This document shows, one piece after another, positions 21,424 through 63,420 of a stretch of DNA of 64,000 nucleotides. Origin of the DNA: an uncultured Candidatus Saccharibacteria bacterium (GTDB taxonomy: Bacteria; Patescibacteriota; Minisyncoccia; Phycocordibacterales; UBA2100); the NCBI GenBank assembly GCA_964398775.1, contig CAYNND010000001.1, forward strand, positions 39,528-103,527. Direction: 5' to 3'. Both the position numbers and the translations under genes were made by a program. The notes beneath the pieces were generated by a model. That model was not told the DNA's origin, searched no databases, and saw only the letters and a list, made by a program, of their open reading frames with translations. Each line of letters starts with the position of its first letter. Within the stretch, counting starts at the first letter, position 1.

Positions 21424-22362
21424 CTAGAAACTTTCGCGACATGATGCACTATCACGCTCTGGTGTGTACATGATACCGAAATGACTCGTTGTTTCCTTGA
21501 CTGTAGAGTCATTCAGGAGTGTTGCAGAGTTTGTATGTGCGAAAAAGTACGGGTGCGGTGTTTCGTGCCCCGCTGCAAGTGTTGTCGCAAGCCACAGACA
21601 GGTCGGGCAGTCACTCTGCTGTGGATTCCTGAGCCGTTTAATATACTCAAGCCGTCGTGCACAGAGCGCGGTCTGTGTATCGAGGTCCATCATCTGCGCA
21701 TCTAGAAGCGGCAGGTAGTGCGAAAAGTCAGTACTCAGTACGAGCACAGTCCGTGTATCAAGCAGAAGAGACTCAAGAATACTCGCAAGTGCAATACGCT
21801 GTGCACTCAGTTTCGATTCATCGATAGAAACAACGACAGGAATGACACTTGCTTCAGGAACATAGTGGCGAATAAATGGGACAACGCTGTAAATGCCGTG
21901 CTCCTTTGAGAAGAGGTCGGACTGCGCAAACACACCTGACGTCAGTAGGCGTTGTACTGAAGGAGCGTTGATAGGAATATCACCAAAAAATGTTCCGAAC
22001 GAGCCATACGATGTACATGCAAATTCAGGACATCGCTTGTAGTGATCAGGTGAGAGCACTATGAAGCGTCGTGCCTGCGGTTGCGTTTTCGCGATACGCG
22101 CTATACCTTCCGCGATGACCTCATGTGCAACAAGGTGATGCGGGACCACTACGATGCGTCCCTTATGTGTATCAAGTGGACGACTAGAGCGTTCAAGAGA
22201 TGTGATGCCACTCACCACTGCTCCATCGAGCGCAGCATCATGAATAGTGTAGTAGGGGCTTGATGTGTAGCGCAGTACAAATAGACTGACAACTCCAAGC
22301 ACACACAAACCACCAATTATCGTGATATGAGTGGTTGATACCAGACGGGAAGTTTTGGCCAT
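21424..22362 (-). CDS. MEMO1/AmmeMemoRadiSam-B-like family protein with N-terminal membrane anchor
   Basis: VVVPHHLVAHE and LSTDFSHYL blocks resemble MEMO1-family motifs; N-terminal TM helix. Confidence 0.45.
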   Translation of the reverse strand: MAKTSRLVSTTHITIIGGLCVLGVVSLFVLRYTSSPYYTIHDAALDGAVVSGITSLERSSRPLDTHKGRIVVVPHHLVAHEVIAEGIARIAKTQPQARRFIVLSPDHYKRCPEFACTSYGSFGTFFGDIPINAPSVQRLLTSGVFAQSDLFSKEHGIYSVVPFIRHYVPEASVIPVVVSIDESKLSAQRIALASILESLLLDTRTVLVLSTDFSHYLPLLDAQMMDLDTQTALCARRLEYIKRLRNPQQSDCPTCLWLATTLAAGHETPHPYFFAHTNSATLLNDSTVKETTSHFGIMYTPERDSASCRESF

Positions 22363-54548: not shown

Positions 54549-55598
54549 CTATTTTTCTGGGGACTCAGTTGCTTCAAGTACGATAAGCTCGAGAATCATG
54601 TGCGGATACGGTGAGCGGCGAATATCTGCGCCGCGCTCAAGGAGTACCCGGAGCATTTTTGAATTGATAGCACTATGCACTGCGTCTTTTCCTTGCGCGT
54701 AGGCTGCAACAAATGCATACGTGTCTGGCGAGAGTGATGTTTTAAATACTTCGTTCATAGAAGGTGCGCTTCTGAGTAGAAGTACGGCACGCACAAGCTC
54801 GAGTAGTCGCGTAAAGAGCATATCGATGTTTACACCCTGTGTGCGTGCGAGCGTGATATGAGAGAGCACTGAAGCGAAGTCACCCTTTGACCATGCTTCA
54901 AGAAGTGTTCGCGCAAGTGCCTGTGTCGGAGCTCCCGTTCGCTCTGCTACCAACTCGTCGGTTATTCGTGTGCCGTCTGCAGCTGTAATAATCTGCTGCA
55001 AGATTGAGAGAGTATCTCGGAATGAGCCATCGCCAAGTTCGGCGATAGAGTCAGCTGCAGCTGTATCAATAGCAATTTTTTCTTTCTTTGCGATACGCTG
55101 CACGGTCTCAGCAAGCACATCACGTGTGGGTCGTGCGAGTGTATATACTTCACAGCGCGAAAGTATGGTCTCAGGAACTTTATGAATATCAGTTGTCGCA
55201 AGAATGAAAATGACATGCTGTGGCGGCTCTTCGAGAATCTTCAGGAGCGCATTGAATGCACCTTTTGAGAGCATATGCACTTCATCGAGTACGTAGACCT
55301 TGTATGGTGACTCAAGTGGGAGTGTCATCGCGCCATCTCGTAGTGCGCGGATTTCATCAACTCCGTTATGTGACGCAGCATCAATTTCATAGACATCCTT
55401 ATCTGTCACTTTAAGCGCGCTCGCTAAGATGCGCGCAAGTGATGTCTTTCCAATACCGCGCCCGCCAGAGAAGATATACGCATGCGATGGCTTCCCCGCT
55501 GCTACAGCGGCCTCCAAAGTCTTCACAACTGCATCCTGTCCAATAACATCTGCAAAGGTGTGTGGTCGATACTTTCTGTACAGTGAGTGGTGTTCCAT
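54549..55598 (-). CDS. dnaX: DNA polymerase III gamma/tau subunit (short, gamma-like, 349 aa)
   Basis: YRKYRPHTFADVIGQD, Walker A SGGRGIGKTSLARILA, DEVHML, NALLKILEEPP sensor motifs. Confidence 0.8.
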   Translation of the reverse strand: MEHHSLYRKYRPHTFADVIGQDAVVKTLEAAVAAGKPSHAYIFSGGRGIGKTSLARILASALKVTDKDVYEIDAASHNGVDEIRALRDGAMTLPLESPYKVYVLDEVHMLSKGAFNALLKILEEPPQHVIFILATTDIHKVPETILSRCEVYTLARPTRDVLAETVQRIAKKEKIAIDTAAADSIAELGDGSFRDTLSILQQIITAADGTRITDELVAERTGAPTQALARTLLEAWSKGDFASVLSHITLARTQGVNIDMLFTRLLELVRAVLLLRSAPSMNEVFKTSLSPDTYAFVAAYAQGKDAVHSAINSKMLRVLLERGADIRRSPYPHMILELIVLEATESPEK

Positions 55599-55604
55599 AT
55601 GTAT

Positions 55605-55916
55605 TTATTGTTTCGGTTTTCTTCGTTCTGTAACTATATACTCTTCGAGGTGAATAAGAAACGCAAACGGTGTCAGGAACCGGATATTTCCACTCTCGCC
55701 AGCAGGTAGACGCGCAGCATATGGCAGTAAGTCTGGAGGCCATGGGAGTTTTGATTCAATGCCGGTTGAACGGTGCTTGGCAAGTTCACATATTTTCTCA
55801 GTCAGAACTCGCGTATCCTCTGTAAGATTTTTGAACTCAGGAGTATCCATCATAAGTTCAATATGTGTATCTTCGTATGGGCTTGTGTTTTGTGCTATAG
55901 CCTCAAGTGCCATCAT
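55605..55916 (-). CDS. Hypothetical protein (between dus and dnaX)
   Basis: 103-aa ORF with ATGA overlap to dus. Confidence 0.4.
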   Translation of the reverse strand: MMALEAIAQNTSPYEDTHIELMMDTPEFKNLTEDTRVLTEKICELAKHRSTGIESKLPWPPDLLPYAARLPAGESGNIRFLTPFAFLIHLEEYIVTERRKPKQ

Positions 55917-56914
55917 GACTCCATACTATCATGGGCACTTCTCAGGAGTAATAGCGCGCTCTCAGCATCATCTGTCTGCATGAGTGCCGTACGCAAGTCA
56001 CTTGCATGATTCCATCCTGCAATATAGCTGCCGAAATGTTTTTTCATAAGGGCAAAACTCTTAATATCAGCAAACTGTTTCTGGTACTCCTCGGTATGCT
56101 CAATGAGTGCTGCGATTCGCTCTCGCGCTGTTGCATGATAGTCAGTGCCGTACCATGGGTTACCGAACATGCCACGACCTATCATGACACCATTGCAGTG
56201 TGTTTCCTCATACCGCTGCTGCGCTTCAGCGACAGTTTTTACATCACCATTTCCTACTATCAAGGTAGATACTCCCATGCTGTCTCTCAGGGTAACTGCA
56301 CGGGCAACAGCACCCCACTGTGCAGGAACTTTTGACATCTCTTTTCTGGTACGCGCGTGGACCGTCAATACTGCGGGCTCTTCACTCAATAATTCTCGAG
56401 CCCAGTCTTCAAGGGTGTCTTGGTTCCAGCCTATCCGAGTCTTTACCGAAACAGGAATGTCTGGAGCGCCGCGCTTTGCTGCTTTAATAAGTTCACGGGC
56501 AAGCGCAGGATTTTTTATAAGTGCTGCGCCACATCCTTGATTGTTGACTGCATCCACAGGGCATCCCATGTTTATATCAACCCCATCAAAACCGAGTTCT
56601 TGCACGATTGCCGCACCCTGCTCCATGTACCCAGGAACGCTAGAGAAGAGTTGCGCGACTATCGGACGTTCAATTTCACTAAAGCGTAACTTTGAGCGCA
56701 GCTTGCGCTGACCTTCAGCAGGAGCTCGAACGAGCCCATCGGCGGAAGTGAACTCTGTGAACGTGACATGGGGCTTCCCTCGTCGGGCAATGATAGTACG
56801 AAACGCGACATCGGTGACGTCATCCATCGGTGCTCCGACTATGAACGGCTGCGCGAGTGTGGCCCAAAAGTTTTTCATCGCAGGCACGATACTGTAGATA
56901 TGAAACGAATGCAA
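55913..56914 (-). CDS. dus: tRNA-dihydrouridine synthase
   Basis: FMN-binding TIM-barrel blocks GAPMDDVTD and GFDGVDINMGCP with catalytic Cys. Confidence 0.85.
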   Translation of the reverse strand: MHSFHIYSIVPAMKNFWATLAQPFIVGAPMDDVTDVAFRTIIARRGKPHVTFTEFTSADGLVRAPAEGQRKLRSKLRFSEIERPIVAQLFSSVPGYMEQGAAIVQELGFDGVDINMGCPVDAVNNQGCGAALIKNPALARELIKAAKRGAPDIPVSVKTRIGWNQDTLEDWARELLSEEPAVLTVHARTRKEMSKVPAQWGAVARAVTLRDSMGVSTLIVGNGDVKTVAEAQQRYEETHCNGVMIGRGMFGNPWYGTDYHATARERIAALIEHTEEYQKQFADIKSFALMKKHFGSYIAGWNHASDLRTALMQTDDAESALLLLRSAHDSMES

Positions 56915-56916
56915 TC

Positions 56917-57651
56917 TTACCCAATATCAGCGATGAGCGCGCAATGGTCACTCATGCCGCATTTCATGACAACAGCATGCACAGGAGCAGCACCTGGTGT
57001 TCTGAAAATATAGTCCACCATGTACCGCGCAACTTCAGCAGCAACAGGAGGATTGGTGCGCACGCGATGCAGCGGTATGTGCATACTGGATGTATATGTA
57101 TGCGGTACGCAATCTTCGAAATACTGCGTCAGTGTCTCGTAGCAGGAGTTGTACCCTCGAGGGATATTGAAATCCCCGCAGACGATTGTCGGGGGCATCG
57201 TTCGTATATACTCCATCAGTGCTTGAGTATCTGTTTTTTGATACTCACTTGGTTTGTCACCATCCTGTGTCCACGTGTGATGGAGCGTCGCGACACGAAC
57301 ACCGTCTATTTCGGTACTAATGATGCCGTGCTGTATCGTCTTTCTTTTTGTTTCTTGATTTGTTCTGTCCTGCTCTACTAAAGCCTCAGTGGGTTTGTAG
57401 TAGTAGTGTACGACCGTGTTTGACTGTGCATGACTACTCATGAGCACTACCCCACGCTCATCAAGTGAGCCATCTGTGCGGCGCTCAAGGATCATCGGCA
57501 TGAATGTAACGTATGGGAGTGATGATATCCGTGGAATATCCTGTTTGAAAACCTCTTGCATGCAAAGCACATCAGGACGCTCTGCAGCTATAAAGTCACA
57601 CACAAGTGTGAGGTGTGCATCACCTTCTATGTTTATTTGTACTAGTTTCAT
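56917..57651 (-). CDS. Endonuclease/exonuclease/phosphatase (EEP) family protein
   Basis: LCMQEV, GDFNIPRG, SDHCAL catalytic blocks. Confidence 0.75.
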   Translation of the reverse strand: MKLVQINIEGDAHLTLVCDFIAAERPDVLCMQEVFKQDIPRISSLPYVTFMPMILERRTDGSLDERGVVLMSSHAQSNTVVHYYYKPTEALVEQDRTNQETKRKTIQHGIISTEIDGVRVATLHHTWTQDGDKPSEYQKTDTQALMEYIRTMPPTIVCGDFNIPRGYNSCYETLTQYFEDCVPHTYTSSMHIPLHRVRTNPPVAAEVARYMVDYIFRTPGAAPVHAVVMKCGMSDHCALIADIG

Positions 57652-58652
57652 TGGAGTGTTTCTTGTTCGTCGTTCACTCCCTCATCTGTCGGCTCATCAG
57701 CTGTACGTGATTTGTAGTAGAGACGATTCCCAAAGCGGGCATCAATATATTCAAGTCCTGCATACTTCTCCTTGACTGGTGCTGCTGTGCGCGCAGTGTG
57801 AATGGTCTGCGCTACACGTACTGGATCATCATCGAGCAATACGATGATGTCTGGATTATTTTCAAAAGACATCCGCATATCTACACCATCATCAGATATA
57901 GAGATTGCGTCACTTTGCATTTCGATATCACGGAATGCAACGACAAACCCTCGGAGACGATTGAAAATTCCGGGGAGTACGTACGCTCCAATAGACTGAC
58001 CCTCTGTGACACCACCTCGCAGCGCTGGGTATACATATGCACCTGATGCCTCTTCAAAGATGAAGCCAGTTTCATCAGCGTGGTAACACAAGCCTTCTCC
58101 AGAGGCATCGCACCACGTAGCAAACGGAATGCGCTCGGTGATTGTTACTTTGACTGTATTCATCCCGTACCGACGCACGGAAATATCTTCAATGCGAGGA
58201 AAATCTTTTCGCAGCCGCTCGCCGACAGCTGAGAGGTCTGCGGTCAGTATAGTGTTGCGTGAGTACAACATACCTTCATGTGAAAGCAGTGCTTGGAGTG
58301 TCGAGGTTTCGATTTGCGCAGCCGAAATCTGTCTTGTGCCTTCTACGATGACCGATGATATAGCAACTGACTGATGAAACGTGAGCGCGCTCAAGCCCGC
58401 AGCACCAAGCACCATTACAGCGAAAGTGGCGTAGAGTACTCCTCTTCTTTTATACGCTCGACGTTGCTTGAGTGGAGTGCGACGTTTCTTTTTTTGAGCA
58501 GGTGTTTCTTTGTGTGGAGCGCTTCGATTCACAAAAGCATATCGCTTAAACGACAGCGTTTGCGGGTCTGCTGCGCGTTTTACCGCAATCTTGTCACCAC
58601 CTTTTCTCAGGTCAACTACTCCGCGTCGTTTGTGTGGTGGTGTGTGTGTCAT
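57648..58652 (-). CDS. ftsQ: Cell division protein FtsQ/DivIB-like (POTRA domain)
   Basis: basic N-terminus, single TM, POTRA-like ISSVIVEGTRQISAAQIETS, 334 aa. Confidence 0.6.
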   Translation of the reverse strand: MTHTPPHKRRGVVDLRKGGDKIAVKRAADPQTLSFKRYAFVNRSAPHKETPAQKKKRRTPLKQRRAYKRRGVLYATFAVMVLGAAGLSALTFHQSVAISSVIVEGTRQISAAQIETSTLQALLSHEGMLYSRNTILTADLSAVGERLRKDFPRIEDISVRRYGMNTVKVTITERIPFATWCDASGEGLCYHADETGFIFEEASGAYVYPALRGGVTEGQSIGAYVLPGIFNRLRGFVVAFRDIEMQSDAISISDDGVDMRMSFENNPDIIVLLDDDPVRVAQTIHTARTAAPVKEKYAGLEYIDARFGNRLYYKSRTADEPTDEGVNDEQETLQ

Positions 58653-59806
58653 GATGACAAAGAGTCGAGGAATTGCGCTGTTCCTTCTCCGTGAACTGCA
58701 TATACGATAGCGAAGAGCTCCTCAAGGCACAACCCATCTGAGACCACCGTGTGAACAAAACGAGTTTTGGTAGCAGTATCAACATATTTTAACCCTGCAC
58801 GTCGCGACTGAAAGTCATGATAGTACTGTATTCGAGCAAGCACATATCGCTCAGAGAACATCGGTATATCTATCTCATAGCTCTTTACCACTGCTGGGTG
58901 TGCAGCGCGCGCAGTCACAACTGAAGTACGAAATGGGATATGGAGTGTATTCAAGAGCTGTTCATAGCATGAGCGAATACTTTCATGCTGTTCGACAGAA
59001 ATGTCATGTCGAGCAAGGCATACTGACAATGTACCTACAACATGACCAAAAGAGCGCAGCGCTCGGTCACGAAAAAGTTCGACATCCATAAGATACTTTT
59101 CTGGAAGTCGCGACTCTTCATAGGTAGAGCCGACATGTGCTTCAAGGAGATATGGTATGACTGATGTGCCAACAAGACCAAACGATGCTTCAGTTAAATA
59201 TGTACCAACCTCATCTGCGCTTGCGCCGGAGGCAATACACGCATCTCGAGACACGCCGGGCATACTGCGAGCAAGCGTAAAACCAGCTGAAGCAAAATAT
59301 CGGTGCACGTATGTCTGTAGTGCAAGAAATGAACGGTATGTAGTTACACTCGGAACAAGCCACACATTTTCACCACGAGTCACCTGCTGGATAGACGCAC
59401 GTGCGAGTACATCTGAAAACACTACGTGCTCTGTCGGCTGGCGTTCTGATCTCCCGACCTCTACTACTGCTTCAGTCTCACTCCCAGTCGGCACAGAAAT
59501 GTCAGGCATGTTTGGGATGAGCACCATCTCTCGCTTAAAACGCTGCAGTGACTCAGCGTACTGAGCCTCTTCTTGAGCAAGTTCACTCTGTATACTCTGC
59601 AGAGAAGTCTGTGCTTGCGCATCTCCTCCCTGTGAAAGACGCTCAAGTACTCGTACGCGCGCTTTCTTCCCCTGGAGAGAGAGGTGTAATTTCTTCCGCT
59701 CGTCATCCGCATCTGTCAGTGGCTGCAGGTCAAGTTTCATCCCACGACGCTCAGCTGCATATCGAATAAGCTCTGGGTTATCTCGGATGAACTGAATATC
59801 AAGCAT
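58649..59806 (-). CDS. Seryl-tRNA synthetase-like protein (divergent; motif 2/3 residues not conserved)
   Basis: N-terminal MLDIQFIRDNPELI and coiled coil like SerRS; C-terminal TKTRFVHTVVSDGL aligns with SerRS KKTRLVHTLNGSGL, but motif 2 FRSE...RG and the motif 3 Arg are replaced. Confidence 0.55.
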   Translation of the reverse strand: MLDIQFIRDNPELIRYAAERRGMKLDLQPLTDADDERKKLHLSLQGKKARVRVLERLSQGGDAQAQTSLQSIQSELAQEEAQYAESLQRFKREMVLIPNMPDISVPTGSETEAVVEVGRSERQPTEHVVFSDVLARASIQQVTRGENVWLVPSVTTYRSFLALQTYVHRYFASAGFTLARSMPGVSRDACIASGASADEVGTYLTEASFGLVGTSVIPYLLEAHVGSTYEESRLPEKYLMDVELFRDRALRSFGHVVGTLSVCLARHDISVEQHESIRSCYEQLLNTLHIPFRTSVVTARAAHPAVVKSYEIDIPMFSERYVLARIQYYHDFQSRRAGLKYVDTATKTRFVHTVVSDGLCLEELFAIVYAVHGEGTAQFLDSLSS

Positions 59807-59878
59807 AGGAGTCAGTATAAATCATTTTATCGTTTTTGCCGCATGTTCACGCACGGTGTGCGCACGAAAGCTGCAATA

Positions 59879-61027
59879 CTATTTCTTTTTCTTATGTTGT
59901 GCTCGCTTCTTACCACGAGATACCTTTTTCACCGGATGAGTCTGTAGCGGTGTATGGCGAAACGCTTCTGTACGTTTACCCTCTTTCAATGTCTGCACAA
60001 GTTTCCCCACGTCTTGCGCCTTACTTTTATCAAGCACAAGTAATGCCTCGGGTGTCTCAACCACTACAACGTGAGATAACCCTACAACAGTCACGAGACG
60101 TGACTCGGAACGGATATATGAGTTTGAAACATCGCGCAATACAACATCACCAACAATGACATTACCTTGACTGTCTTTTATTGAAGTGTCGTGTAACGCG
60201 CTCCATGAACCGATATCGTTCCACCCCATCGATACAGGTATGACTTTTGCCTGCGATGTTTTCTCCATGACAAGTGTATCAATAGACCCGATGACAGGCT
60301 CGTCGACTGTTTTCCTCAACATAAGAATGGTCGAGTGTTTTTTCGGAAGTGCTGCTTTTGCCCATGCATGTACTGACGGTGCGTGTATTTCTATCTCACG
60401 GAGTAATTCGTCAGCACGAGCAACAAACATACCACTGTTCCAGAAATGCTCACCGCCAATCACGTATTGCTCTGCTCGTTCTGTATTCGGCTTTTCTACA
60501 AAGGCTGCGACTGAGCGAACATGCTCAGAAGTGTGTGCGCCAGCGTGAATATATCCATACCCTGTCTCAGGATATGTAGGAATGATGCCAAATGTGACAA
60601 TACCTCCTGCCTGCGCTTCATGTGTCGCTTGAGTGAGCGCACGCGCAAATGCTTTTGTGTCTTGTATGACGTGGTCAGCAGGCATGACACACACAATAGG
60701 CATAACACCCGCTGCCGCACGTGCAAGTGCATGGTGTGCCGCAAGAGCAATCGCTGCCGCAGTACCTCGTGCCTTATTTTCTGCAATAATCGTCACAGTG
60801 CGGTTACACACATCAGCATGCTCTTTGATGCGTAGCGCATACGCTTGATGTACGACCACAATCGGCTCGTCCTTAATCGTCTTGGGGATACGCAAAAGTG
60901 TTTCCTGAAAGAGTGAGTGCTCGGATGTGAGACTCAAGAACTGTTTCGGATATTCGGCGCGAGATGATGGCCAAAGACGTGTACCAGAACCTCCTGCAAG
61001 AATGACTGGTACCGTCGTAAATTTCAT
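59879..61027 (-). CDS. manC: Mannose-1-phosphate guanylyltransferase (ORF-track N-terminal 82 aa extension rejected; start at MKFTTVP)
   Basis: VILAGGSGTRLWPSSRAEYPKQFL nucleotidyltransferase signature; ~380 aa from the internal Met. Confidence 0.8.
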   Translation of the reverse strand: MKFTTVPVILAGGSGTRLWPSSRAEYPKQFLSLTSEHSLFQETLLRIPKTIKDEPIVVVHQAYALRIKEHADVCNRTVTIIAENKARGTAAAIALAAHHALARAAAGVMPIVCVMPADHVIQDTKAFARALTQATHEAQAGGIVTFGIIPTYPETGYGYIHAGAHTSEHVRSVAAFVEKPNTERAEQYVIGGEHFWNSGMFVARADELLREIEIHAPSVHAWAKAALPKKHSTILMLRKTVDEPVIGSIDTLVMEKTSQAKVIPVSMGWNDIGSWSALHDTSIKDSQGNVIVGDVVLRDVSNSYIRSESRLVTVVGLSHVVVVETPEALLVLDKSKAQDVGKLVQTLKEGKRTEAFRHTPLQTHPVKKVSRGKKRAQHKKKK

Positions 61028-61088
61028 ACCGCCATCATACCCCAGCGCTGCATTTTGTGAATAAAAGATATCAACGTACAATATATGT

Positions 61089-61820
61089 ATGAATACCAAC
61101 GCAAAACATCTCTTTTTTGATGTTGATAACACGATTACCCGCAGCAAATCCCCCATTCTTCCAGAACATGAAGCTTTGTTTGTAGAGTTGTCGAAAACGC
61201 ATGACATGGTCATTGTTTCTGGTTCAAAGCAAACTGATATCTGGGGGCGTTTTACTGATGCGTCAAAGGGCACGTTCTTTACACTCGCGCAAAATGGAAA
61301 CTACGCGTTTGATAGAAATAAAGGCGAACTCTGGAAACGTCTTCTGAGTGACGAGCAGAAGCGAGCAATCTATGCATTTATAGAAAAAATGCATGCGCAT
61401 ACTCACCCACCCGTTTCAGATGAACATGATTTGATTGAAGATAGAGGATGCCAGATTGCATTTAGCTTCATCGGCCATCATGAGAAAATTGAAATCAAGG
61501 AACGATTTGACCCGACTATGGCTGTGCGGCTACAGATACTCAGTGACCTCAAAGAAGATGTGCAACGACTCTCTGATGATTTTGGTATTGAAATGGCAAT
61601 CGGAGGCACTACGAATATCGACATATACCTCAAAGGGAAACATAAAGGATTTAACTCAAAAGCACTCTGTGATCTGCTGGGGTGGAATATTGAAGATACG
61701 CTCTACTTCGGAGACCTCCTCATGCCGGGCGGGAATGACTATACCGTTGTTGGCATACTCCCGACACAGCCGGTCAAAGACTACAAAGAAACGTATGAGT
61801 TCCTGAAGCACTTCCGCTAG
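61089..61820 (+). CDS. HAD-superfamily phosphatase, eukaryotic-type phosphomannomutase (PMM)-like
   Basis: LFFDVDNTIT motif I, VSGSK motif II region; divergently adjacent to manC. Confidence 0.5.
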   Translation: MNTNAKHLFFDVDNTITRSKSPILPEHEALFVELSKTHDMVIVSGSKQTDIWGRFTDASKGTFFTLAQNGNYAFDRNKGELWKRLLSDEQKRAIYAFIEKMHAHTHPPVSDEHDLIEDRGCQIAFSFIGHHEKIEIKERFDPTMAVRLQILSDLKEDVQRLSDDFGIEMAIGGTTNIDIYLKGKHKGFNSKALCDLLGWNIEDTLYFGDLLMPGGNDYTVVGILPTQPVKDYKETYEFLKHFR

Positions 61821-61821
61821 A

Positions 61822-63420
61822 CTAGAGACAGAACGATAGGAAGCACACCTTTCTGCGCTGTGTCGCGTCATATGTTCCCGGCATTGGTGCGCGGAAAGAT
61901 TCATCGACACTTTTATCTGCATATACCTTTACCGTACACTGAGCACTGCCAATGAGCATGTCTTCGTTGTAACACTTGATGGCGTAGAGCGTCGTCGTGA
62001 GAGGTGACACGCGTTCAGAGCCGAGTAAGAAATTTCTTGCATTGAATCCGACACCTACACTTCGGGTAGCGTCTCTCCCGCACGCCCAGGCAATCGTCGG
62101 CCGTGTTCCCAAAAGCATCGTTGTGGGCATACATCGCAATCGCGCATCGCCAAACGGTTTCGGGATGACTGTGTCACGTTTCTCTGATTGACCGAGTTTC
62201 TGTGTCTCGGCAGGTGAACCCAGTGGGTCATGGAATTCTGTTTCATCTGTTTCTATAGCTTCATTTTTTGCCTTTAATTTCGCAAGTGCGTCATTCATTT
62301 TTTTGTCTGTTGCTGTTTGCTTTTGTGTGAGAGGGTCTTTCACTTCTGTTTGCTTTTGATTGAGCATGTCTGACTGCTTCAGAAATTGTGGCTGCTGCGG
62401 AGATGCCTGCGTTGGGGCATATGTTTGCGCTGGAGATGTACTAGTCGGCGCTTGTTGCTGTGGCGCAGGGTTTTGCTGCTGTTGTGTCTGATCCGTCGGT
62501 GACGATGGTGGGTTTTGTGTGGCGTATGGAGGCGGCAGCTGTCCTTGAGGAATATCTACATTGGGTCCTGCGACGGGGGTACCCGCGATTTGCATACCTG
62601 ATGGATTTTTCTTACAAGTACACTTTGTATACTCACTCTTGTCACCACGGCTCGGATGATCGCACTCGGTAAACGAAGTGTAGCTATTTCCTGTTTTATT
62701 TTTTGCATTAATCATCAGCACGCCCGCACACTGCTTCCCTACGGCAGTAAATGCACTGTGGTAATCAGATGCATTCCCTGAACCTTCCTCAACAACAGCG
62801 CCGACAACATTTGGCTGTCGCAGAATTTCAGTATCTTTCACATTTTTGGAAAGCACATTAATGCCTGCGTTCGCCGCAAGTTGGATAAGTTTTATGATTG
62901 CTGCTTTGTGACCTTTTTCAATATAAAAGTCCATGTTGTCGATCTCAATAACTTTCCCTTGCGCTTGCTTTACCCATCCTAACTGCTTGTTGAAGTTATT
63001 GAAAAATTCTGCGCTGTTTGGATGCTGTGCTATTTCGCCGTACTGAGCAGCAACACTTGAACCAGACAGCTGTGGACCACCGCATCCACCAAATCTTTTT
63101 TCACAGTATGCATTCACGTAAAAGAAAGGTACGGGCCCTGTCTGGTTTAGTCGCTGTGCAAGTGCAGGATTTTGAGAAACATATTGTGCATCAACAAACA
63201 CTGAGTCAGCGCGCCCTGCATATGAAGTTGCGGAGCCAGTATTTCCATAAATATATGCATGGCACCCGAAGGTTAATGTATTTTTCCCACAAGAACCTCC
63301 CTGTTGGGTCGGCTGTTGTTGGGTTCCTTGTCCTGCAGCAAAAAGTACCATGCCTGTTGAGAGAAGAAGTGCGACGATGATGGAGTACGATGATGTCGTT
63401 GTATACCTCACAACTTCCAT
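61822..63420 (-). CDS. Hypothetical secreted protein with Gln/Pro-rich low-complexity linker
   Basis: N-terminal TM/signal, Cys-containing N-domain, ~80-aa Q/P/T-rich linker, C-terminal Cys-containing domain. Confidence 0.5.
   Translation of the reverse strand: MEVVRYTTTSSYSIIVALLLSTGMVLFAAGQGTQQQPTQQGGSCGKNTLTFGCHAYIYGNTGSATSYAGRADSVFVDAQYVSQNPALAQRLNQTGPVPFFYVNAYCEKRFGGCGGPQLSGSSVAAQYGEIAQHPNSAEFFNNFNKQLGWVKQAQGKVIEIDNMDFYIEKGHKAAIIKLIQLAANAGINVLSKNVKDTEILRQPNVVGAVVEEGSGNASDYHSAFTAVGKQCAGVLMINAKNKTGNSYTSFTECDHPSRGDKSEYTKCTCKKNPSGMQIAGTPVAGPNVDIPQGQLPPPYATQNPPSSPTDQTQQQQNPAPQQQAPTSTSPAQTYAPTQASPQQPQFLKQSDMLNQKQTEVKDPLTQKQTATDKKMNDALAKLKAKNEAIETDETEFHDPLGSPAETQKLGQSEKRDTVIPKPFGDARLRCMPTTMLLGTRPTIAWACGRDATRSVGVGFNARNFLLGSERVSPLTTTLYAIKCYNEDMLIGSAQCTVKVYADKSVDESFRAPMPGTYDATQRRKVCFLSFCL

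Follow-up and report, generated by a model that had tools for sequence, protein, structure and literature searches.

A probable non-catalytic relic of the native seryl-tRNA synthetase, kept under purifying selection in one genus of Candidate Phyla Radiation bacteria

Introduction

The DNA analyzed here, hereafter the window, is a stretch of 64,000 nucleotides (nt) from the metagenome-assembled genome (MAG) of an uncultured bacterium (assembly GCA_964398775.1, contig CAYNND010000001.1, positions 39,528 to 103,527). Its minus strand carries an open reading frame (ORF) at 58649..59806 whose product, P0001, is related to seryl-tRNA synthetase (SerRS), the enzyme encoded by serS. We conclude, with a probability of about 0.78, that this gene is the native serS in the form of a catalytically dead relic maintained by selection, and that the real SerRS activity of the cell comes from an intact serS of foreign type located in an unassembled part of the genome. 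The two genes are referred to below as the relic and the X-type serS.

Aminoacyl-tRNA synthetases (aaRS) often give way to copies gained by horizontal transfer, and both the intermediate state and the fate of the displaced gene are rarely seen. In SerRS, a coiled-coil arm binds tRNA-Ser at its long variable arm. The genome that holds the window (G000; 0.94 Mb, 32 contigs, 92% complete) belongs to a bacterium of the Candidate Phyla Radiation (CPR). The source names of relatives read Candidatus Parcubacteria, and its DNA is detected in wastewater and activated-sludge metagenomes, among which the run coded X1 contains 77% of the sequence words. It is compared here with two other species of its genus (g1), the sister species G001 and G002, and with relic variants from metagenomes (P0003-P0008), P0008 being the deepest member of the relic family.

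Results

The coordinates and length of 385 residues given for this ORF by the initial annotation correspond exactly to those in the open-reading-frame list, where it lies on the minus strand with an ATG start, and the strings on which its comparison with SerRS was based (SYEIDIPMFSERY, TKTRFVHTVVSDGL, FRDRALRSFGHVVGT and CLEELF) are all present in the translation. The protein starts with MLDIQFIRDN, in agreement with the canonical SerRS N-terminus. The proposed SerRS-type coiled coil is also confirmed: Seryl_tRNA_N (PF02403) scores 40.2 bits, above its Pfam cut-off of 28.2, and the AlphaFold2 (AF2) model contains the two helices (28-59 and 63-95) of an antiparallel tRNA-binding arm. The rest of the protein is much harder to recognize. 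The Pfam class II core (PF00587) reaches 19.6 bits, below its cut-off of 29.3, and covers only residues 264-370, while the NCBIfam serS family TIGR00414 gives 73.3 bits, far under the equivalog cut-off of 301.65. The AF2 model, built from an 82-sequence alignment, has a pLDDT of 91.4 and a pTM of 0.87, shows the long arm, and finds SerRS structures throughout its best Foldseek matches (TM 0.77-0.86, at 15-20% identity). The class II catalytic core fold of SerRS is thereby confidently predicted for the relic.

The catalytic set used to examine this core comprises the seryl-adenylate, ATP and Mg ligands of the 1SES and 1SET structures. Positions are given in Thermus thermophilus SerRS numbering, read from a phmmer alignment to 1SER. 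This alignment, a MAFFT alignment with canonical relatives, and an hhalign comparison of the relic-family profile (9 members) with an intact SerRS profile (46 members; probability 99.6%) agree on the residues found at the catalytic positions. Motifs 2 and 3 are indeed degenerate, and the possibility that an alignment made by eye had been shifted is removed by the concurrence of the three methods. In the G000 relic, 8 of the 10 catalytic positions are lost or deleted. The glutamate of the TxE motif (E227) is either deleted or replaced by V216, the motif 2 glutamate E258 by R248, R271 by S261, E345 by L323, S348 by R325 or I326, and T380 by D357; N378 falls on V354 or V355, the alignments being one residue apart. 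F275 and E279 lie inside a deletion of 9-11 residues, so that the second strand of motif 2, which holds R271, F275 and E279 in T. thermophilus, is replaced or deleted. The invariant arginine of motif 3 (R386) has become E363, and it is absent from all nine members of the relic family, which have E, A or V there. What survives is T225 (T214 in the relic) and the motif 2 arginine R256 (R246), which is invariant in the family. In total, the relic is about 40 residues shorter than canonical SerRS. In contrast, the X-type profile retains all of the mapped catalytic residues as invariant columns. Zinc is a trait of methanogen-type SerRS, and the zinc ligands that the initial annotation mentions do not apply here, as the methanogen-type family TIGR00415 has no match in G000. 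On these sequence grounds, the relic is most likely unable to form seryl-adenylate or to charge tRNA.

The genomic position of the relic indicates where it comes from. A serS gene scores above the TIGR00414 cut-off in 38 of 41 related genomes, with the relatives at 364-474 bits. At 12 loci across the family and order, serS is found between a divergently transcribed dprA and ftsQ, and dus follows ftsQ wherever the fetched locus is long enough; ftsQ is 3' of serS in 13 of the 14 relative loci searched. It is this ancestral dprA/serS/ftsQ/dus slot that the relic occupies in G000, G001 and G002. Both sister species possess a second, intact serS of the X-type (436-450 residues, 370-385 bits), which carries about 20 additional residues as an insert and is 55-62% identical to SerRS from many other CPR lineages, Dojkabacteria and Peribacteria among them. 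The G001 gene order is dprA, X-type serS, relic, ftsQ, dus, with the X-type gene directly upstream of the relic. In G002, the X-type serS and dprA are together on another contig than the relic.

Phylogeny agrees with this picture. In a maximum-likelihood (ML) tree of 63 sequences, the X-type is nested among sequences of Dojkabacteria, Peribacteria and Microgenomates, with 100% support in the SH-like approximate likelihood-ratio test (SH-aLRT), and the relic sequences group apart on a long branch, which attaches among native serS from the family and order. With a reduced set of 36 sequences, it joins inside its own family, and forcing the relic and X-type into one clade costs 16.7 log-likelihood units and is rejected by the approximately unbiased (AU) test (p-AU 0.037). 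Since slot position and phylogeny concur, the relic is taken as the native serS and the X-type as the xenolog. Both indicate that the relic is the displaced, vertically inherited gene and not a duplicate. The idea of a non-catalytic SerRS paralog can thus be kept as far as catalysis is concerned, given the eight lost positions, and has to be given up with regard to duplication, given the ancestral slot and the native branching. The other option offered at the outset, a highly divergent functional enzyme, is disfavored by the same eight losses and by the absence of the motif 3 arginine from the whole relic family.

Among 151 genomes of the family, the relic is confined to genus g1 (384-683 bits), and canonical serS scores at most 180 bits in that search. 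Among 5.8 billion proteins, seven relatives of the relic are found, at 99-42% identity, and none of the seven has a precomputed class II core domain. One source name labels a relic protein as seryl-tRNA synthetase, by automated annotation. X-type loci, encoding proteins of 436-446 residues, are located at L033 (G024:C59), L032 (G022:C30), L015 (G001:C9) and L017 (G002:C7). The X-type serS has come into this CPR family on three or more occasions, with origins in different parts of the X-type clade. The G024 copy fills the serS-ftsQ-dus slot, and the G022 copy lies beside dprA.

If the relic is inactive, G000 needs another SerRS. The initial annotation had proposed looking for a second, canonical serS; the 92%-complete assembly was searched, and neither a canonical nor a methanogen-type gene was found in it (TIGR00415, an alternative source of the activity, has no match there). 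There are five tRNA-Ser genes in the genome. ARAGORN places one with an ACU anticodon outside the window (C4:19319-19406), beside the UGA, GCU, GGA and CGA isoacceptors.

The missing serS is explained by an assembly gap. The assembly also lacks topA, relA/spoT, parB and dprA, and topA is present in all 14 control genomes. In G002, positions 22936-45955 of contig C7 are collinear with contig C11 of G000 up to the very last base of C11 (34730), and no further. The remaining part of the G002 contig (C7:1-22935; loci L019, L017 and L020) carries, among others, a vitamin transporter, parB, relA/spoT, topA, an ABC transporter, dprA and the X-type serS. Because it is not credible that a bacterium would lack topoisomerase I, the topA-relA/spoT-parB-dprA-serS block is missing from the assembly and not from the organism. 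The lack of serS in G000 is almost certainly due to a single block of about 23 kb that failed to assemble, and not to loss of the gene, and we infer that the G000 organism also has an X-type serS on this block. An intact serS thus accompanies the relic in G001 and G002; none is observed in G000, where the expected region falls in the gap. Metagenome contigs were searched with P0124, an X-type protein close to the genus: only relatives of at most 57% identity were recovered, and no contig among these matches links an X-type serS to the G000 contig ends. In another genus, g10, G017 (97% complete) has no serS match, and all that G011 has of serS is an N-terminal piece where a contig ends. It seems that assemblies in this family are repeatedly interrupted around serS.

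Despite the loss of its active site, the relic is not decaying. Its ORF is intact in all nine known members, with 48 invariant columns at identities down to 33%. Since synonymous divergence (dS) between species is saturated, the ratio of non-synonymous to synonymous divergence (dN/dS) was replaced by a comparison of the proportions of non-synonymous (pN) and synonymous (pS) differences and by single-nucleotide polymorphisms (SNPs) between strains. The relics of G000 and G002 share 56% amino acid identity, with a pN of 0.315 against saturated synonymous sites; across the three species pS is 0.75-0.84, and identity at four-fold sites is about 0.3. For comparison, pN is 0.281 for ftsQ, 0.163 for dus and 0.157 for the X-type serS, and between G001 and G002 the dN of the relic (0.90) is about five times that of the X-type serS (0.18). 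Contigs of four public runs, three of which are metatranscriptome libraries from a single study, cover the ORF at 95% identity or more without any indel. Ten strain differences are listed inside it, eight of them synonymous and two conservative (V133I and A81T), giving a pN/pS of about 0.08 (binomial P = 3.6e-4 against the 75% of non-synonymous sites expected). The relic is under purifying selection and is not a pseudogene.

The distribution of this constraint was measured by dividing the mean pairwise identity of six full-length relics by that of 14 native SerRS, region by region. The ratio is 1.3-2.5 in the N-terminal helix, the arm helices and the tip, and 1.08 in the linker. It falls to 0.70 in the former ATP/Mg strand and to 0.51, the lowest value, in the former motif 2. 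Residues 1-110 are the best-conserved part of the relic family, and G61 and D62 at the tip of the arm are invariant, as is A65. Constraint has shifted from the catalytic pocket to the arm.

The relic and its neighbors are listed in Table 1. The run relic-ftsQ-EEP-dus-orf103-dnaX is present and co-directional, as initially described. Its description as a conserved-looking operon holds for serS-ftsQ-dus, which is ancestral across the order, and not for the EEP-family gene: in the sister species, which lack this gene, dus directly follows ftsQ, and contigs of runs X2 and X3 skip it, joining 56894 to 57708 via 114 other letters. A position of the relic at the head of the operon is not established, because the co-directional manC-like gene ends 72 nt upstream. 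The same neighbor is found upstream of the relic in G002, and the X-type serS is there instead in G001. In the 72-nt spacer (59807-59878), a TATACT box stands 8 nt before the relic ATG and there is no Shine-Dalgarno-like purine run. A consensus scan of this spacer yields no sigma-70-type promoter, and a promoter/terminator scan gives fewer promoter-like sites than shuffled sequences, none of them convincing upstream of the relic. Upstream of the manC-like gene, a 532-residue ORF (61822-63420, minus strand) has no Pfam family at E <= 0.01. Elsewhere in the window, a 100-nt tRNA-Pyl(CUA) called by ARAGORN at 22125-22224 (minus strand) was rejected: its stems are mismatched, its long variable region is unpaired, no Rfam tRNA is found there at E <= 1, and it is probably a false positive.

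Table 1. Features of the relic and of the genes around it (positions in the window)
Feature	Position	Strand	Remarks
Relic (pseudo-)SerRS ORF	58649..59806	-	ATG start, 385 aa; open-reading-frame list, Pfam, NCBIfam, phmmer, AF2, Foldseek
N-terminal helix, coiled-coil arm and PNxPDISVPxG linker	59477..59806	-	Residues 1-110; arm helices 28-59 and 63-95, tip G61-D62
Motif 2 remnant	59018..59101	-	Residues 236-263; F245-R246 kept, loop shortened, second strand replaced/deleted
Motif 3 remnant HTVVSDGLCLEELFA	58709..58753	-	Residues 352-366; Glu363 at T. thermophilus R386
FtsQ-like POTRA protein	57648..58652	-	ATG overlaps relic stop (ATGA, 4 nt)
EEP-family nuclease/phosphatase	56917..57651	-	Strain-specific insertion between ftsQ and dus
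tRNA dihydrouridine synthase (Dus)	55913..56914	-	Ancestral serS-ftsQ-dus member
103-aa ORF	55605-55916	-	No Pfam match; co-directional
dnaX	54549-55598	-	Last of the co-directional run
ManC-like nucleotidyltransferase	59879..61273	-	Co-directional, 72-nt gap upstream of relic

Discussion

A model for the displacement of serS in this Parcubacteria/Paceibacteria genus can be proposed from these data. An X-type serS with intact motifs would have arrived beside the native gene and taken over the charging of tRNA-Ser. The native copy would then have lost its ATP, Mg and serine ligands and, instead of being deleted, would have been kept as an intact, translationally coupled ORF in which the strongest constraint bears on the N-terminal arm. 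The relic is probably retained as a pseudo-SerRS analogous to insect SLIMP, for a non-catalytic function of the scaffold and above all of the arm. That it acts specifically through an arm-based, tRNA-binding mechanism is a tentative proposal, to which we give somewhat less than even odds. Its most likely activity would be the binding of tRNA-Ser, alone or with another protein, either in the manner of SLIMP or as a tRNA-recognition cofactor; a homodimeric tRNA-Ser-binding protein and a recognition cofactor for another enzyme appear equally possible. The cofactor role is entertained because SerRS itself serves as the tRNA-recognition cofactor of METTL6 (PMC11479938), and because the operon includes a Dus gene.

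Several observations weigh against this interpretation. The X-type serS itself is not seen in G000. The inactivity of the relic is read from its sequence, and Arg246 is invariant while P0008 still has R-S-E in motif 2, because of which some contact with a nucleotide may be possible. The relic is placed by way of a very long branch whose composition deviates, and the p-value of the AU test is only marginal. The metatranscriptome contigs that cover the ORF may come from DNA carry-over, and neither strand nor level is readable from them. In the MAFFT alignment, the arm of the G001 member is about 36 residues shorter, which weakens a universal arm-mediated role in tRNA binding. Finally, no relic is detectable in G024 or G022, which belong to the same family, so whatever function has been retained is not generally indispensable.

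SLIMP is the closest known system. Its active site is ablated, its coiled coil is retained and essential, and its partner in a heterodimer is SerRS2alpha (PMC10570016; PMC9437257). The two proteins are alike in being derived from SerRS, in having lost the residues of the pocket while keeping the class II fold and the N-terminal coiled coil, in coexisting with an active SerRS (in G001 and G002 for the relic), and in being kept by selection. However, SLIMP arose from a duplicated animal mitochondrial SerRS and its partner has lost the coiled coil, whereas the relic is the bacterium's original gene, supplanted by a serS that came in by horizontal transfer and has its own arm. It has an independent bacterial origin in one CPR genus. 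A bacterial counterpart of SLIMP, that is, a displaced native SerRS that is catalytically dead and works through its tRNA-binding arm, is on balance a doubtful identification. Such a counterpart could be a subunit for tRNA-Ser handling or recognition, serving the foreign SerRS or a tRNA-modifying enzyme. Alternatively, it could retain, within the ftsQ/dus operon, a moonlighting activity for which the foreign enzyme is no substitute.

A stricter version would make the relic a true SLIMP-type subunit, forming a heterodimer with the X-type SerRS and giving an arm or a regulatory surface to an enzyme with a single active site. Its points in favor are the co-occurrence of the two genes in G001 (adjacent) and G002, the arm being the best-conserved part of the relic, and the precedent of SLIMP itself, which has an ablated active site, retains its coiled coil and is needed for charging by SerRS2alpha (PMC10570016). 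However, the X-type SerRS keeps a complete N-terminal arm of its own (PF02403, 86.8 bits), with no complementary loss, which makes a strict heterodimer less likely. In addition, the relic family does not conserve the motif 1 proline that belongs to the dimer interface, the lineages from which the two proteins derive are only about 20-25% identical, and the genes are unlinked in G002, the G000 relic having the same manC neighbor. This explanation is unlikely. The complex predicted for the G002 X-type and G002 relic, both entered as alignments, scores 0.00 against a mark of 0.32, and counts neither way.

It is quite improbable that the relic is a functionless remnant, either an undecayed pseudogene or a frame held open only to couple ftsQ through the ATGA overlap. 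The 4-nt overlap does exist, related lineages have no detectable relic, and the gene evolves about five times faster than the X-type. Coupling alone is nevertheless rejected, because it preserves a frame and not amino acids: pN is far under the saturated pS, the 48 invariant columns remain, strain SNPs are 8:2 in favor of synonymous changes, and the ORF is intact in all nine members and in all covering contigs.

Still less probable is a neofunctionalized enzyme, in which the class II scaffold would catalyze or sense something else, as do the amino acid:carrier-protein ligases, HisZ and the AsnA-type paralogs. The invariance of Arg246 and the presence of polar residues conserved only in the relic (E116, E121, E146 and an RGEN motif) would be compatible with it. 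But the strand and loop that shaped the ATP pocket have been deleted, the region around the old pocket is the least constrained, and the neighborhood contains no partner gene of carrier-protein, biosynthetic or regulatory type. The weakest proposal, that the relic is a highly divergent, active and sole SerRS of G000, draws on the lack of another serS in a 92%-complete assembly, the retained motif 2 arginine and the confidently predicted SerRS fold, and is scarcely tenable given that the motif 3 arginine, the TxE glutamate, the adenine-stacking phenylalanine and the Mg and serine ligands are all gone, that equally degenerate orthologues stand beside an intact serS in G001 and G002, and that the absence of topA and the other core genes flanking the X-type serS in G002 points to a gap.

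Comparison with other SerRS-related proteins helps to situate the displaced native gene. The relic has the domain order and predicted fold of canonical bacterial SerRS (TIGR00414; 1SER, 1SES and 1SRY, and Escherichia coli 6R1M), as well as its MLDIxFIRxN start, PNxP linker, DFQxRR and VHT segments, and genomic slot. It differs in lacking the TxE glutamate, the motif 2 glutamate and second strand, the Mg and serine ligands, and the motif 3 arginine. The amino acid:carrier-protein ligases have no N-terminal tRNA-binding domain, are of zinc-dependent methanogen-type origin and keep adenylation. These truncated homologs of methanogen-type SerRS are also derived from SerRS and do not charge tRNA (Mocibob 2010, as cited in PMC9437257). 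The relic is the reverse case: it is of bacterial type, without a TIGR00415 match, and has kept the arm while losing the chemistry. Along with SLIMP and these ligases, the known SerRS paralogs include the antibiotic-resistant SerRS2 (PMC9437257). For the albomycin-resistant SerRS2 of Streptomyces, what that review relays is a genome with two serS genes of low identity, one apparently acquired, as here; both copies are active there, whereas one is ablated in the relic genus. HisZ, the regulatory subunit of ATP phosphoribosyltransferase (ATP-PRT), likewise puts a class II aaRS scaffold to a non-aminoacylating use (PMC9437257). HisZ, however, keeps its amino-acid site and has hisG as a partner, whereas the serine ligands of the relic are gone and it has no evident partner. 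A literature search found no paper on a catalytically dead SerRS in bacteria or Patescibacteria. The relic is a further case of the known class of pseudo-aaRS, and its origin is unusual in that a xenolog displaced the native copy.

Conclusion

An automated SerRS label on the relic would wrongly suggest that this MAG has a complete set of aaRS or, read the other way, that it has an aberrant SerRS. More broadly, a single CPR family displays all stages of a displacement: native serS only, foreign serS beside the native gene (G001), the two unlinked (G002, and probably G000), and the native gene gone (G024). The persistence of the gutted copy under purifying selection implies that the native SerRS had, or gained, a second function that is separable from catalysis. 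The relic genus is therefore a tractable bacterial system in which to approach the roles of the SerRS scaffold and arm besides tRNA charging. If the proposed interpretation is true, the relic would be the first prokaryotic pseudo-SerRS, and a living intermediate in the xenologous displacement of an aaRS.

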